Source: Candidatus Saccharimonadota bacterium
Lineage (GTDB): Archaea; Nanohalarchaeota; Nanosalinia; Nanosalinales; Nanosalinaceae
DNA length: 32,000 bases
NCBI RefSeq assembly: GCF_029232205.1
Contig: NZ_CP107255.1
Location: 240,001 to 272,000 of the forward strand
Direction of reading: 5' to 3'
The notes under the pieces were generated by a model, which saw nothing but the letters and a program-made list of their open reading frames with translations, was not told the DNA's origin and ran no database searches. Shown here piece by piece: positions 14,413 through 19,200 of the stretch. A program made the translations under genes and the position numbers. Positions within the stretch are counted from its first letter, which is position 1. Each line of letters opens with the position of its first letter.

Positions 14413-16299
14413 TTAAGATATGTCCAATTCGTCTTTGAGGCTTTCGATATACATGCGGGCCATTTTGAAGCGGCCTTCTTTGAGTTTGTTGTCTGCGAGG
14501 TTGATTTCAAGTTGTTTGTCCTGCATGTCTTGGCCTTGGTCTTCGAGTTCCTGGACTTTATCTTTTACTTTGTCCATTTCTTCTGTTAGTTCGTGGTATT
14601 GGTCTAGTTCTTCGTCCGGGATTTTGTGCGGGTTGTGGTATGTTGGTCTGAAGTCTACGAACCATGGGTCTCCGTCGTTGTAGTTGGAGTTCTGGATCAT
14701 ACCTGTACCAACGTCCTCCGAGGATATTCTTTTTGAGAACTGTTCGCCGTATTTTTTCTCGATTCTTTTGATGTCTTCCATGGATTTGGTTTGCATTTGT
14801 ACTTCTGTCATGATGTTTCCGGAGATTGCTTGTTTGAAGTCTGCTGTAACCTGCGAGCACATCATGAGGCCTATACCCCATTTTCTGAATTCTCTTGCTC
14901 CTTTTTCGAGTGCTTTGTATCCTCCTTCTCCTCCGTATTCTTCTAGTAGTCTGTGTACTTCGTCGAATACGATGAATAGTTCGAGTGTTGGACTTTCTTC
15001 CCATTCTTTTTCGAAGATCTGATCAATAATTTTCCTTACGGCCTTGTCGAACTGTTCCGTGGTTAACTGGTTGAGTGTGAATACTGTGATTTCTCCTGGG
15101 TTTCTGAGCTCTTCGAAGTCGATGTCAGGGTCTTCCGACTTGATTTCTTTGATAACGCCGGGATAAGGGTGTGGGTCGGTGTCTTTGTTCATGTCGAATC
15201 TGTCGTAGTGCTCCAGGAGGTTGTCATCTTTCAGTTCTTTTACGAATCCTGTCCATTGTGCTGTTGGATCGAATACTACGACAGGTATGTCCTGTTCTAG
15301 GGCCTCTTCTGCGATGATGTTGGCGGTCACGGATTTTCCGGATCCTGTGGATCCTGCTACGATTGCGTGTGTGGTGAGGTCTTTTGGATTGATGTATGCT
15401 GATTTCTCTGTTTCTGCGATTTTTCCTACTTCAAACATCTGGTCTCCGTCGCCTTCATCTGGTAGTTTGCTGTAGTCGACGGGGAATACGTATCTTGCTT
15501 CTTCCTGCATGTGTTCCTGGTACCATCTGCGTGTGTAGAATCCTCCTCCTATGATCAGGCCTCCTGCCAGAAGTAGTATGGCTAGTTTGATTCTTGTGGC
15601 TGTCCAGAATGGGTTGGTTACCTGGAAAGTGTCTGTTGCTGTTATTGTACGGTTTCCGCGTGTTGCGTGACCCTGTATGTAGTAGTCTCCTGTCGACAGG
15701 CTTTCATTAGGTTCTATAGTGTGTCTGTACGATTTCAGTCTGACAAAGCTGGTGTTTCTGGTTGTTTCAAATACTTTTCTTCCTGTTTGGGCCTCTCTTA
15801 CGTCGTATGTTACTTCTGCGGAGATGTTGCCCTGTGTGCTGCTGGATAGTACTGTGAGTACTCTTATGTTTTCGTTTGGCCGTATTTCTTCTATTGTTGC
15901 CTGCATGTCGATTTTGAATTCGGCGTTTCTTCTTGTTACTACTCTTGCGCCTACTGGAAGGCTTTTTTCGGTGTTTTCGGTTTGTATCAGCAGGCTTCCT
16001 AGGTATAGGCCTTCTTCCAGGTCGTTGGTGGTGTTCATTACTGCTTTTACGTTTCTGGTTTGTCCTGGGCTCAGGCTAAATTGTTCGTTGAGATCCAACA
16101 CTCGTCGCAGGTCTGATCGGCTTGTTACTGTTACGTCTTCTGTTGTGTTTCCGTTGTTGGTGACGCTCAGTGTGTAGATCTGTGGTTCTGATTTGAAGAT
16201 CACGCTGAGAGAGGGGATGTCGTCGTTGACTGATATATCTGCAGCTGCTGTTGCGGTCATCATGCTGAGTGCCAGTAGGATGATTGCTGTTTTTTTCAT
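14413..16299 (-). CDS. Type-I membrane protein: signal peptide, ~240-aa beta-sandwich-like ectodomain, one TM helix, cytoplasmic HerA/FtsK-superfamily (DUF87-like) ATPase
   Basis: 628 aa.
- Signal peptide: MKKTAIILLALSMMTATAAAD.
- TM helix: IKLAILLLAGGLIIGGGF.
- Walker A: AGSTGSGKS.
- DPTAQW motif.
- Walker B: LFIVFDEVHRLL.
- FRKWGIGLMMCSQ (HerA-like RK-G-G-L-SQ motif).
- Coiled-coil C-terminal tail.

The ATG shares one nucleotide with the giant gene's TAA (TAATG). Confidence 0.8.
   Translation of the reverse strand: MKKTAIILLALSMMTATAAADISVNDDIPSLSVIFKSEPQIYTLSVTNNGNTTEDVTVTSRSDLRRVLDLNEQFSLSPGQTRNVKAVMNTTNDLEEGLYLGSLLIQTENTEKSLPVGARVVTRRNAEFKIDMQATIEEIRPNENIRVLTVLSSSTQGNISAEVTYDVREAQTGRKVFETTRNTSFVRLKSYRHTIEPNESLSTGDYYIQGHATRGNRTITATDTFQVTNPFWTATRIKLAILLLAGGLIIGGGFYTRRWYQEHMQEEARYVFPVDYSKLPDEGDGDQMFEVGKIAETEKSAYINPKDLTTHAIVAGSTGSGKSVTANIIAEEALEQDIPVVVFDPTAQWTGFVKELKDDNLLEHYDRFDMNKDTDPHPYPGVIKEIKSEDPDIDFEELRNPGEITVFTLNQLTTEQFDKAVRKIIDQIFEKEWEESPTLELFIVFDEVHRLLEEYGGEGGYKALEKGAREFRKWGIGLMMCSQVTADFKQAISGNIMTEVQMQTKSMEDIKRIEKKYGEQFSKRISSEDVGTGMIQNSNYNDGDPWFVDFRPTYHNPHKIPDEELDQYHELTEEMDKVKDKVQELEDQGQDMQDKQLEINLADNKLKEGRFKMARMYIESLKDELDIS
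14413..16299 (-). repeat. Tandem duplication unit A (whole 628-codon gene)
   Basis: Homologous codon-for-codon to 16299-18185 at a constant +1,886-nt offset. The offset was checked at the stops, Walker A, the ATPase start and the FW motif before the TM helix. Confidence 0.85.
14416..15501 (-). other. Cytoplasmic HerA/FtsK-superfamily ATPase domain of the 628-aa paralogue
   Basis: Walker A codons at 15331-15354. About 87% amino-acid identity to 16302-17387 by hand alignment, with no indels. Confidence 0.8.
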
Positions 16300-19200
16300 T
16301 ATTCTATTCCTAGTTCGTCTTTGAGGCTGTTGATGTACATTCTGGCCATTTTGAAGCGGCCCTGCTTGAGTTTGTTGTCCGCGAGCTGTAGCTCAAGCTT
16401 CTTGTCTCTGACATCCTGTCCCTGTTCTTTCATTTGTGATAGCTTGTCCTTAAGCTTGTCGAGTTCTTCGGATAGCTCGTGGTATTTCTCCAGTTCGCTG
16501 TCCGGAATCTTGTGCGGGTTGTGGTATGTTGGTCTGAAGTCTACGAACCATGGGTCTCCGTCGTTGTAGTTGGAGTTCTGGATCATACCTGTACCAACGT
16601 CTTCACTGGAGATTCTCTTGGCGAACTCTTCACCGTACTTGGTCTCCACACGGTCAATGTCCTCCATTGACTTCGTCTGCATTTGTACTTCTGTCATGAT
16701 GTTTCCGGAGATTGCTTGTTTGAAGTCTGCTGTAACCTGGGATGCCATCATCAGGCCTATACCCCACTTACGGAACTCACGAGCTCCCTTCTCTAGGGCC
16801 TTGTATCCTCCTTCTCCTCCGTATTCTTCTAGTAGTCTGTGTACTTCGTCGAATACAATCAGCATCTCTAGTTCTGGGCTTTCCTCCCATTCTTTTTCGA
16901 AGATCTGATCAATAATCTTTCTGACTGCGGAGTCGAACTGCTCTGTGGTTAGTTCGTTCAGTGTGAATACTGTGATTTCTCCTGGGTTTCTGAGCTCTTC
17001 GAAGTCAATGTCTGGATCTTCTGAGCTAATCTCCTTGATGACTCCTGGGTATGGATGCGGATCTGTTTCCTCGTCCATGTCAAATCTGTCATAGTGTTTG
17101 AGCAGGTCATCGTCCTTCAGCTCTTTCACGAATCCTGTCCATTGTGCTGTTGGATCGAATACAACTACCGGGATATCTTCTTCCAGTGCTTCCTCTGCGA
17201 TGACGTTTGCGGTCACGGACTTACCGGATCCTGTGGATCCTGCTACAATTGCGTGTGTTGTCAAATCTTCAGGATTGATGTAAGCTGATTTCTCTGTCTC
17301 CGCAATCTTACCGACTTCGAACATTCTGTCGCTGTCGGTGTCGTCTGGTAGTTTGCTGTAGTCGACTGGGAAGACATATCTTGCTTCGCTTTCTCTCTTG
17401 ACCCAGTAGTACTGGTAGGCCTTCCATCCTCCTATGCTGATTAGCATTATTAGGAAGAGTAGTACTGCTGCTCTTGTTCTGAATGGTGTCCAGAATCTTT
17501 CCTGGATGCTGAATGTTGCTGTGTCGATCACTGTGCTGTTACGGGCCTGTGCTACTGCCTGTACGTAGTATCCTCCTCTGCCTAGGCCTTCTGTGCTGAA
17601 TGATCTCTGGAATTCTGTTGATTCCATGATGTTCAGGCTGTCGTTGCTCTGGGCAAGGATTTCGTCTGTTGAGCTTTCTCTTAGGTAGTATGTTATTGAT
17701 ACGTTGATTGGTGTTTCCAGTTCGATCTCTGCGATTGATACTGCGAATGTGAAGTTGTTTCCTGGTTCTACGCTCTGTGTGAGCGGCTGGAGGTCGAGGT
17801 TCATTCCCTGAATTCCTCTTCTTGCGACGAGGATTTGCTGTGTGCTTCTGGTGGTTGTGTTTCCGTATGTTGCTATGATGTCTCCTTTGTAGCTCTTGAT
17901 TGATGCGTTTTCTGGGATTGATGCTCTCATCTGTGTGATTGTTGATGAGTTTGGACTGATTCTTGTACTGGTGTTATCGAAGCTGAGTAGCTTCTGCAGT
18001 TCTCCTTCTACGTCCAGGTTGAGTTCGATTGTTTCGTTCTGGTTGTTTTCGATCTCCAGTAGGAATGTTCTTTCCTCTCCTCGGAACATGATTGGCTGGA
18101 AGATTCTTGGGGAGATGATGAATGGTTCTGGCCCGTATGCATCGTCGAGGCCTGTGTCGTTGAAGCTTTCGTTCTGTTCTCTGCCTCCTCCTGTTATTGG
18201 GCCTATTGTGCCTCCTGTGTTTTCTCCTGAGTTTGATCCTCCTGATGATGTGTCTTGGCCTTCTTCTGGGTTTTCTTCTGTGTTGTCGTTTTCCTGGTCT
18301 GGTGTGTCGTATCTTTCGAGGATGTAGCTTGAGGTGCTGTTGCTTTTGGCGCTGTATGTGTTTTCGTCAATGTTGATTGTGCCGTTGAGCTGTGTCCATG
18401 TGCTTGTTGTGTTACATTTGCTGATGTTTCCGTACTGGCATTTGTACATTCTGAGGTTGTTTTCTTCTTCTTCGTCGAAGTCTTCTGTTGTTGTGTAGTT
18501 GAGTGTTACGACTACTTCTCTGAAGGTCATGTTGTTTTCTATGCTGATTCCTGCGAACGTCTTGTTTGTGGTCTGTTCTGGGTGGCTGAAGTTTGTGTTT
18601 TCTCCTATGTCAACTGATGTTAGCTGTACGGCGTTTGTTGTGTTTCCTGAGATGTTTGCTTCGTTGAATTCTAGTTTGTGTCTCTGTATTCCGTTTCCTG
18701 TGTCTGTGTCTGCGTCGATTTCGATGTCGTATGTTCTGTTCTGTACTGTGAGGTTGTACGTTGAGTCTGTTTCTTCTTCCTCTAGTGTTGTGTTGCTGTT
18801 TGGCCTCTTGAATTTGAAGTTTGGTTTGACGTTGTTCATCTGGCCTGTGACTGTTACTCTTGGGAATACCGAGATTGGAAGGGCCTTGGAGGTTGTGTAT
18901 CCATTTTCGTCTGTTAGTGTTACGTTTACGTCGTAGTCTCCGTCCCATGCTGTTTCTGTGGCGTTGGCCTTGTAGACTGTACCGTTTCTCTGGAAGCTGA
19001 TGTTTTCTACAGCTGTGTTGTTTTCCAGGTATACTAGCTGGCCTTCGATGCTGCTGATGTTTACGTTGTCGAATGCGTCTACTTCTACTGTTGCGTTTTC
19101 TCTTTGTTCGACGTTTTCACTGGTTGTTGATGTGATGAATGGGCCTGTTGTGTCTCTGTACTGTGTGCTGAGTTTTTCTCTTGTTTCGATGTTGTCTGTT

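Follow-up and report, generated by a model that had tools for sequence, protein, structure and literature searches.

Ancient tandem ATPase genes of Nanohaloarchaeota, one of them the end of a giant surface protein gene: ATPase halves that evolve in concert and outer halves that do not

How do two adjacent genes come to encode nearly the same protein over one half and distantly related proteins over the other? The question is raised by a 32,000-nucleotide (nt) stretch of contig NZ_CP107255.1 (positions 240,001 to 272,000; "the window" below) from Candidatus Nanohalovita haloferacivicina, a nanohaloarchaeon (DPANN) known from culture and reported by Reva et al. 2023 (PMC10266531). The giant surface protein of this organism, BNXNv_0298, comprises 8,880 amino acids (aa), and the ATPase gene BNXNv_0297 lies directly downstream of it (PMC10266531). 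The corresponding genes of the window, which were equated with these two by organism and gene order, are here called S (the short gene) and G (the giant gene, whose last module is the part homologous to S):

14413..16299, minus strand: S (BNXNv_0297), 628 aa; signal peptide, two beta-sandwich outer domains, transmembrane (TM) helix, HerA-like ATPase, helical hairpin
16299..32000, minus strand: G (BNXNv_0298), SPEARE-type surface protein; C-terminal 5,233 codons inside the window

The 628-aa product of S is an exact match to a Ca. Nanohalovita haloferacivicina protein. The reading frame of G is open up to base 32000, so that the gene is cut by the end of the window; the open reading frame (ORF) at 16299-31823 on the minus strand (5,174 aa) is only its C-terminal part. 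The ATG of S shares one base with the TAA stop of G (TAATG), an overlap that suggests translational coupling of the two genes. Our answer to the question is that S and the last ~628 codons of G are very probably ancient tandem paralogues whose ATPase halves have been homogenised by recurrent gene conversion, with ectodomain and TM helix evolving independently. The comparisons below demonstrate the paralogy, the age of the pair, the concerted evolution and the position at which it stops.

At the constant offset of 1,886 nt that the initial annotation had proposed, S and the last module of G correspond segment by segment:

16237..16299, minus strand: S signal-peptide-like N-terminus, residues 1-21 (MKKTAIILLALSMMTATAAAD); Sec-type by sequence, helix 2-15 in the model
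15619..16236, minus strand: S ectodomain, unconverted; beta-sandwich domains aa 22-121 and 128-227 in the model, 21% identity to G, groups with other S ectodomains
15502..15609, minus strand: FW motif, S-type TM helix and juxtamembrane segment of S, aa 231-266; 27% identity to G, conversion boundary at the cytoplasmic end
14617..15501, minus strand: S ATPase core, aa 267-561, HerA/DUF87 type, Walker A at 15331-15354; segment under concerted evolution
14416..14616, minus strand: S C-terminal helical hairpin, aa 562-628, less often converted; helices 562-587, 593-607 and 611-625
17388..18185, minus strand: last outer module of G (after a low-complexity linker) and G-type TM helix; homologous to S residues 1-266
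16302..17387, minus strand: ATPase core and C-terminal hairpin of G, partner of S 14416-15501; 317/362 aa identical, no indel

Over the final 1,086 nt the ungapped alignment holds without indel, with 882/1086 nt and 317/362 aa identical (87.6%, 45 substitutions), in accord with an earlier hand estimate of about 87% and about 45 substitutions; differences in this aligned ATPase half are distributed 46/13/145 over the three codon positions. The Walker A (15331-15354 and 17217-17240) and FW (15604-15609 and 17490-17495) landmarks lie in both copies where the initial annotation had placed them, whereas two further entries of its landmark table, the stop codon and the ATG counterpart at 18185, follow arithmetically once the genes are adjacent and the C-terminal half is free of indels, and are not independent evidence for the offset. 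In the ectodomain the offset shifts through single-codon gaps at S residues 31, 70, 146 and 197. What had been described there as motif-level similarity is true homology: profile-profile alignment with hhalign gives a probability of 99.6% and an E-value of 1.5e-23 over 193 columns at 20% identity, a hidden Markov model (HMM) of the S ectodomain matches G at 4578-4772 (E 4e-24; the sole other match, at 4043-4114, is weak), and BLASTP aligns S aa 33-627 with residues 4578-5173 of the giant. S is thus a full-length paralogue of the last module of G.

The conservation between the copies is stepped, as first noted, with aa identities of 21% in the ectodomain, 27% in the TM helix and juxtamembrane segment, 92% in the ATPase core and 69% in the C-terminal tail. 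In this genome the nonsynonymous divergence (dN) of the core is 0.06 and its synonymous divergence (dS) about 1.06, giving an omega (their ratio) of about 0.055, and synonymous sites are saturated alike in the two halves (proportion of synonymous differences, pS, 0.55 in the ectodomain and 0.57 in the core). Since synonymous sites are saturated throughout, the step is one of dN only, and on its own it fits purifying selection as well as conversion. An ancient duplication without any conversion, with strong purifying selection on the ATPase and drifting ectodomains, would have produced the equal saturation, the dN-only step and the low omega. Under it the ATPase should fall into an S clade and a G clade, a prediction that can be compared with the trees of several genomes; the gene conversion which the initial annotation had invoked for the ATPase is supported by that cross-genome comparison and not by the step within one genome.

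The locus was gathered from 15 other assemblies, most through exact-protein look-ups, and a one-protein contig scan gave six loci. Tandem ATPase copies 1.87-1.98 kb apart were found in the window and in loci L001-L005, L007, L009-L011, L014 and L015: nine Nanohaloarchaeota loci representing about seven distinct lineages (the window, L001-L005 and L009-L011), the Woesearchaeota metagenome-assembled genomes (MAGs) L014 and L015, and L007, a MAG labelled Methanosarcinales. Where the flank suffices, an upstream protein ending in a TM helix and ATPase is followed by a paralogue of about 620-700 aa, with a gene overlap of 1 or 4 nt between both copies in seven loci. Full-length orthologues of S (620-630 aa) occur across Nanohaloarchaeota with 60-88% identity over 100% of the length. 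The size of the upstream partner ranges widely, with examples of 1,157 aa (L011), 9,409 aa (Nanohalococcus) and 15,808 aa (Woesearchaeota L014). The last of these, called on JAIPIC010000001.1 (locus at 1-8100), far exceeds the 9,409 aa of what has been described as the largest protein of any cultivated archaeon (PMC10266531).

These loci date the duplication, for which the initial annotation had suggested a comparison with related genomes: it is ancient and precedes the split of the sampled Nanohaloarchaeota lineages. The initial annotation itself was read as proposing a recent spin-off, in which the last module of G was duplicated in tandem not long ago to yield a new gene whose ectodomain then diverged fast under diversifying selection. 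The exact head-to-tail arrangement, a unit that starts after the low-complexity linker, and an S signal peptide where G has its linker are what such an event would leave. It is nevertheless extremely unlikely: full-length S orthologues are present throughout Nanohaloarchaeota, always in the same position; S ectodomains form a lineage of their own, orthologous across genera (31-82% identity); and in L012 and L013 an S-type gene is accompanied by the same downstream neighbours with no giant adjacent. Of the statement that the giant's module had become a free-standing gene, the module homology stands and the recent origin does not; for the direction the evidence is mixed. The S-type copies without an adjacent giant score as S in HMM comparisons (115 vs 71 bits in L012; 111 vs 79 in QJJ-5, a further Nanohaloarchaeota lineage), although their TM motif is G-like; the S copy of Woese14 is also more S-like (74.6 vs 50.3), whereas the Woese14 G and the L007 copies are ambiguous. 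The commonness of short forms and the variable length of the partner would fit growth of one copy by N-terminal accretion, which is not decisive.

Across these genomes the two halves of the pair have opposite histories. Over the 240 residues of ectodomain and TM helix, and leaving out the near-identical SG9/L009 pair, identity is 36-90% between G copies and 31-82% between S copies, but only 17-27% between G and S, including G and S of one genome. With the ectodomain and TM helix, all G separate from all S at 100% bootstrap, a split that receives 0% with the ATPase. In the ATPase tree it is S and G of one lineage that pair, with support of 100 in B1-Br10, 97 in L011, 80 in Nanohalococcus, 76 in L010, 100 in L007 and 100 in Woese14, and Nanohalovita and its closest relative (L001) group together with 97. 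Quartet sites tell the same story: in the ATPase core 2,207 sort by genome and 117 by position, and in ectodomain plus TM helix 1,016 sort by position and 200 by genome. The identity step falls at the first cytoplasmic/ATPase residue after the TM helix in 11/11 genomes, and the S-type (IIGGGFY..RWY) and G-type (LISIGGWKGYQYYW) TM helices are each conserved across genera. Among the eight Nanohaloarchaeota genomes compared, no aa position of the ATPase core is fixed differently in S and G; candidate S- or G-specific signature residues came down to a handful of weak majority differences and were rejected.

These trees decide against duplication without conversion, as the copies group by genome where separate ATPase clades were predicted; nor can that account yield the long identical stretches described below, up to 888 nt in L001 and runs of 80-152 nt that beat a site-specific null, and it is highly improbable. 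A compositional artefact behind the grouping by genome would show in the ectodomain of the same genes, and it does not. The ectodomains, which the initial annotation considered to be diversifying, are better described as two old, separately conserved lineages. Grouping of the ATPase copies by genome is also what birth and death would leave, with one copy in each lineage disappearing time and again and being re-formed from the other by a new duplication. In Woese14 the S protein (699 aa) and the last module of G both start with the Cys-rich motif CGNNxCExGENxxNCPxDC, absent from Nanohaloarchaeota, which fits an independent duplication there. A fresh duplication would, however, reset the ectodomain and TM helix together with the ATPase, yet in Nanohaloarchaeota these group by position with 100% bootstrap, and short identical tracts in otherwise saturated sequence point to patchy conversion rather than to duplication of the whole unit. 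We therefore regard birth and death as quite unlikely, and recurrent conversion of the ATPase halves as the better account.

The traces of individual exchanges are visible as identical tracts, all given here on the minus strand with their positions in both copies. The initial annotation had listed the 92- and 62-nt tracts; both are real, and two more were found:

14624..14715 (= 16510-16601), minus strand: 92-nt identical tract; p = 1.5e-4 (shuffle null), 0/5000 (site-specific null)
14792..14853 (= 16678-16739), minus strand: 62-nt identical tract; p = 5e-5 (shuffle), 2e-4 (site-specific)
14915..14970 (= 16801-16856), minus strand: 56-nt identical tract, third-longest; p = 0 under both nulls
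15074..15120 (= 16960-17006), minus strand: 47-nt identical tract in the alignment at 1,886-nt offset

Conversion was assessed with permutation nulls of our own and with neighbour-joining bootstraps. The shuffle null permutes codon pairs within amino-acid classes and has a mean longest run of 35 nt. Both tract hot spots are rich in low-degeneracy residues and partly conserved at synonymous sites, and a stricter null with column-specific synonymous rates derived from other lineages was therefore built. The tracts are longer than expected by chance under both nulls, and the column-specific null is rejected in six lineages (p <= ~2e-4).

Similar traces are found in other genomes. Identical runs of 80-152 nt between the two copies of one genome are present in Nanohalovita, Nanohalococcus, L010, L011, NhbDAL, SG9/L009 and Woese14, the complete chromosomes of Nanohalococcus and SG9 being among the carriers; CP104395 has tracts of 133 and 152 nt. 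Between genomes of similar nucleotide identity the longest runs are 20-53 nt in most pairs (71 nt for Nanohalovita and its closest relative), so that runs inside a genome exceed those of most between-genome pairs of similar divergence two- to threefold. In L001 not one difference separates S from G over 888 nt (dS = 0). The tail is diverged (dN 0.23), and the last ~200 nt retain copy-specific differences; in the hairpin, the comparison of Nanohalovita with this relative gives 17 sites that sort by position and 0 by genome. At the 24 aa sites that differ between S and G in the window, the homogenised core of L001 carries the G state at 16 and the S state at six.

QJJ-5 is the only unlinked pair that was encountered. 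Its S-type gene lies with the coiled-coil and zinc-ribbon genes on one contig and its giant-type copy on another with different neighbours (L013 and L016). Here the longest identical run is 35 nt, and the two copies are 77.8% alike, compared with 78.2% between the QJJ-5 S and its L012 orthologue. Conversion thus appears to be favoured by the adjacency of the copies.

Several observations weigh against conversion as the explanation, or limit its reach. Given a core dS of about 1.06 and a pS equal to that of the ectodomain, most of the Nanohalovita ATPase has not been converted recently, and only the four short tracts show conversion in this genome. The 888-nt identity of L001 is read from the assembled sequence of a 5.8-kb MAG contig (JBDGTW010000179.1), and the trees are neighbour-joining trees on Kimura distances, not maximum-likelihood trees. 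In B1-Br10 (L004, B1-Br10_U2g21, 4127-7077) the copies are 97% identical in aa and 85% in nt, with no long identical run and 141 evenly spread synonymous codon differences, a pattern that likely goes back to a full-length conversion long ago, with strong purifying selection since. For the Woesearchaeota the ectodomain quartets are uninformative (about 4:4:5), and given these flat quartets and the Cys-rich motif shared by both Woese14 copies an independent duplication in this group is possible. Finally, the between-lineage synonymous observed/expected ratio of the two hot spots is 0.72-0.79 (0.74-0.79 for the 92-nt tract), and 14631-14701 (71 nt) and 14799-14848 (50 nt) are shared without change by all four sequences, from both copies of Nanohalovita and of L001, despite a synonymous divergence of about 0.75-1.0 between the two species. 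Within-genome conversion cannot account for this between-species identity, and the local synonymous dip explains it only in part.

B1-Br10 was also considered as evidence of selection on protein identity and dropped, since synonymous differences saturate at about 0.3-0.4 in all pairs beyond the species level and its codon bias is weak; with saturation considered it is a mild outlier only.

The four-way identity and the reduced synonymous divergence (21-28% lower at the tracts between lineages), together with the recurrence of tracts at the same two places in many genomes, would favour a constraint on the nucleotide sequence, from an RNA structure, for instance, or from an embedded element, in place of recombination. 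The dip is modest, however, and a null that includes it is still rejected (p ~2e-4 or below); moreover, the excess length of within-genome runs over between-genome runs and the lack of long runs in the unlinked QJJ-5 pair speak for exchange between neighbouring copies. By these comparisons of rates and run lengths, constraint as the cause of the tracts is very unlikely, and the 92-nt tract is best read as a conversion tract within a region of somewhat reduced synonymous divergence.

The ATPase copies also differ in codon usage. The initial annotation had noticed more A/C-ending codons in S, and the count bears this out, with 81% in the S ATPase vs 67% in that of G (chi-square p = 3e-4); at the 103 synonymous third-position differences S has A or C 85 times and G 36 times. 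It is the G ATPase that is the outlier, with 33% G/T-ending codons vs 12-23% in S, in other parts of G and in four neighbouring genes, the chief changes relative to S being A to G (38 times) and C to T (18 times). The shift goes in the same direction in Nanohalococcus and L010 and in the opposite direction in SG9.

Under recurrent conversion, then, the pair arose by a duplication older than the split of the sampled Nanohaloarchaeota lineages, after which the ectodomain and TM helix of the two copies followed separate paths, each as an orthologous lineage. The ATPase halves have undergone repeated non-reciprocal homologous recombination between the adjacent direct repeats of one chromosome, in tracts of about 50-150 nt up to nearly 900 nt. 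Conversion halts where the TM helix reaches the cytoplasm, and upstream of this point the copies are too diverged to recombine (about 20-27% aa identity). Since the S-type and G-type helices are each conserved, S/G hybrids at the TM helix may in addition be selected against.

What the arrangement means for the two proteins can be approached from the same data. Based on the gene overlap, the conserved partner genes, the absence of any core position fixed between S and G and the overwriting of the L001 S core mostly by giant-type sequence, we infer that both motors are interchangeable and belong to one membrane apparatus, with specificity residing in the TM helix and ectodomain; the G and S proteins thus probably work in one complex whose specificity lies outside the motor. 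A more speculative extension, which we put forward with low confidence, is that both motors sit in one mixed membrane ring, akin to the mixed hexamers suggested in the initial annotation, in which a few giants are diluted by short "filler" subunits, S, the coiled-coil protein and the zinc-ribbon protein forming the conserved core of the DPANN host-attachment machinery and the giant being an add-on. If so, one hexamer would be spared the crowding of six megadalton ectodomains, subunit interfaces would be kept compatible by gene conversion, and the ring would owe its asymmetry to the type-specific TM helices and ectodomains.

The kind of motor involved was assessed by sequence and by structure prediction. 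The AlphaFold2 model of S (mean pLDDT 84.5) begins with the signal-peptide helix, followed by a pair of beta-sandwich domains and a single long TM helix; a RecA-like ATPase and the C-terminal helical hairpin make up the rest. By Foldseek, the outer domains match RbmA, a biofilm scaffold protein of V. cholerae (TM-score ~0.6), and the ATPase matches HerA (4d2i, E 4e-12) as well as the HerA-NurA and Sir2-HerA complexes; phmmer searches of the PDB with the S ATPase returned HerA-type chains only. Pfam DUF87 (PF01935) is matched at 46.8 bits by S and 46.5 bits by G (cut-off 23.2), and HerA_C at 34.9 and 27.5 bits, respectively (cut-off 22). The Walker A and Walker B residues G316-S323 and D446/E447 are invariant in 48 S-type homologues, and Walker A, Walker B and other core residues are found in both S and G. 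By sequence and predicted fold the ATPase is HerA-like (HerA/DUF87).

The published assignment is to VirB4/TraG with PF03135 (PMC10266531; Hamm et al. 2019, PMC6642349), which was not reproduced: PF03135 (CagE_TrbE_VirB) has no Pfam match at E <= 0.01, and the NCBIfam VirB4/TraC equivalogs stay below their cut-offs (TraC 23.8/567, VirB4_plasma 20.4/590 and CD1110 16.9/325 bits). The sole VirB4-related match is TrwB_AAD_bind, over a short P-loop stretch (residues 307-363, 23.8 bits). In S, to which the published annotation ascribes the VirB4 N-terminal domain PF03135, the first 230 residues are outer-side beta-sandwich domains, and no type IV secretion components were found among the neighbours in the window. 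As judged from homology and the model, this corrects the family assignment from VirB4/TraG to HerA-like.

The family is broad, with 337 cluster representatives at E <= 1e-30, and among the 150 best matches the ATPase is C-terminal in proteins of about 600 to 7,900 aa. Several distant homologues (P0186, P0189, P0191, P0197, P0199, P0201 and others) carry the ATPase in mid-protein, followed by an extension of 350-730 aa. A fusion of ATPase and coiled coil ("Rosetta stone") in P0199 and P0186 was considered and rejected, the best E-values being 0.95 and 0.002 over 59 hairpin-region residues.

Downstream of S two further genes complete the cluster:

12822..14378, minus strand: third cluster gene, 518 aa, acidic N-terminus followed by a long coiled coil; weak Rad50/SMC coiled-coil matches
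12478..12825, minus strand: fourth cluster gene, 115 aa, zinc-ribbon-like CxxC...CxxC motif and C-terminal TM helix

Wherever the flank suffices, Nanohaloarchaeota loci have the coiled-coil gene downstream of S, and it is also present in Woesearchaeota L014 (E 2e-15); the zinc-ribbon/TM gene is kept after the coiled-coil gene in 10 Nanohaloarchaeota loci; in L011 both are located about 4 kb further downstream. The coiled-coil and zinc-ribbon proteins may be parts of the same apparatus as S. Besides these two, the neighbours in the window include an XPD/Rad3 helicase, SufB/SufD and a cytidylyltransferase. The first 6.7 kb, which encode MMPL, TetR, MatE, SdpI and DUF2178 proteins, may be an island.

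The window is also skewed in composition. On the plus strand the AT skew is about -0.3 to -0.57 from about 7 kb on (6750-32000) and -0.17 to +0.07 before (1-6700). The minus-strand genes of the skewed part have only 2-11% T-ending codons, whereas the plus-strand ORFs in gaps at 9349-9699 and 10163-10555 have 55-57%; a Pfam scan of the ORF at 9349-9699 gave no match. Since the plus-strand gap ORFs are T-rich at third positions and the minus-strand genes T-poor, the skew tracks the DNA strand and not gene orientation, unless both gap ORFs are non-genes. Two antisense ORFs of 112 codons, at 14684-15022 and 16570-16908 on the plus strand, lie exactly 1,886 nt apart, one opposite each ATPase copy. 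They were considered as the cause of the identical tracts and rejected, as the 92-nt tract is overlapped only partly and similar ORFs are plentiful opposite G; they are probably by-products of the skewed composition and codon usage.

Among known systems, the SPEARE or giant surface proteins of nanohaloarchaea are the very genes treated here, BNXNv_0298 and BNXNv_0297. In the window G carries Laminin_G_3 (1.1e-23), Lectin_C, Big_3_3 and a C-terminal DUF87 in Pfam searches, that is, the adhesion/laminin-G ectodomain, C-terminal TM helix and conserved cytoplasmic ATPase that define the SPEARE type. Published work describes an ectodomain of Ig-like and lectin domains, a single TM helix after it, and then a cytoplasmic ATPase with a coiled coil at the terminus; it places "another ATPase" of the same family directly downstream, and finds the cytoplasmic part to be best conserved, with counterparts in other DPANN phyla (PMC6642349; PMC10266531). 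The literature searched on these genes contains no mention of full-length tandem paralogy, duplication or gene conversion, and no report of ATPase halves evolving in concert while ectodomain and TM helix do not. Known, then, are the genes, their domain layout and their adjacency; new is the domain-restricted concerted evolution across an archaeal phylum. This bears on the SPEARE-type giants as leading candidates for attachment of nanohaloarchaea and other DPANN to their hosts and for opening the connection: the giant is accompanied by a short full-length paralogue, and their motors would have been kept interchangeable through the history of the phylum, the outer and membrane parts remaining distinct.

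The HerA hexameric translocases (Sulfolobus HerA 4d2i, HerA-NurA, and the Sir2-HerA and DUF4297-HerA anti-phage systems) are the best matches in sequence and fold. HerA is, however, soluble and has an N-terminal HAS barrel, whereas the ATPase described here is predicted to be tethered by an N-terminal TM helix with outer domains; its NCBIfam HerA equivalog scores are far under the cut-offs (31.9 vs 800), and neither NurA, Sir2 nor another nuclease partner is located nearby in the window. The archaeal Ced system, with the membrane-anchored DNA-transfer ATPases CedB and CedD, embodies a similar idea, a membrane-associated motor of the HerA superfamily. CedD is the best NCBIfam match, yet at 46.6 bits against a cut-off of 600 and over about 67 residues round the P-loop; CedB scores 20.2 vs 700, and no other Ced genes were found nearby. 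By these scores the S ATPase is not a member of the Ced family.

Concerted evolution by gene conversion is itself a well-known kind of mechanism, of which the present pair is an unusually clean example. The bacterial tufA and tufB genes are duplicates that evolve in concert by gene conversion, and the tandem ATP1A1 paralogues of toad-eating frogs reportedly do so by segmental gene conversion. As in known segmental conversion, copies from one genome cluster where the sequence is converted and sort by gene where it is not, identical tracts stand amid diverged sequence, and there is a sharp boundary at a functionally different part. Unlike those cases, the pair is archaeal (DPANN), with its boundary at a helix that spans the membrane; one partner forms the end of a protein of about 1 MDa, and the pattern persists across a phylum. 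The locus thus provides an archaeal example of domain-limited concerted evolution, in which an unlinked pair serves as a natural control.

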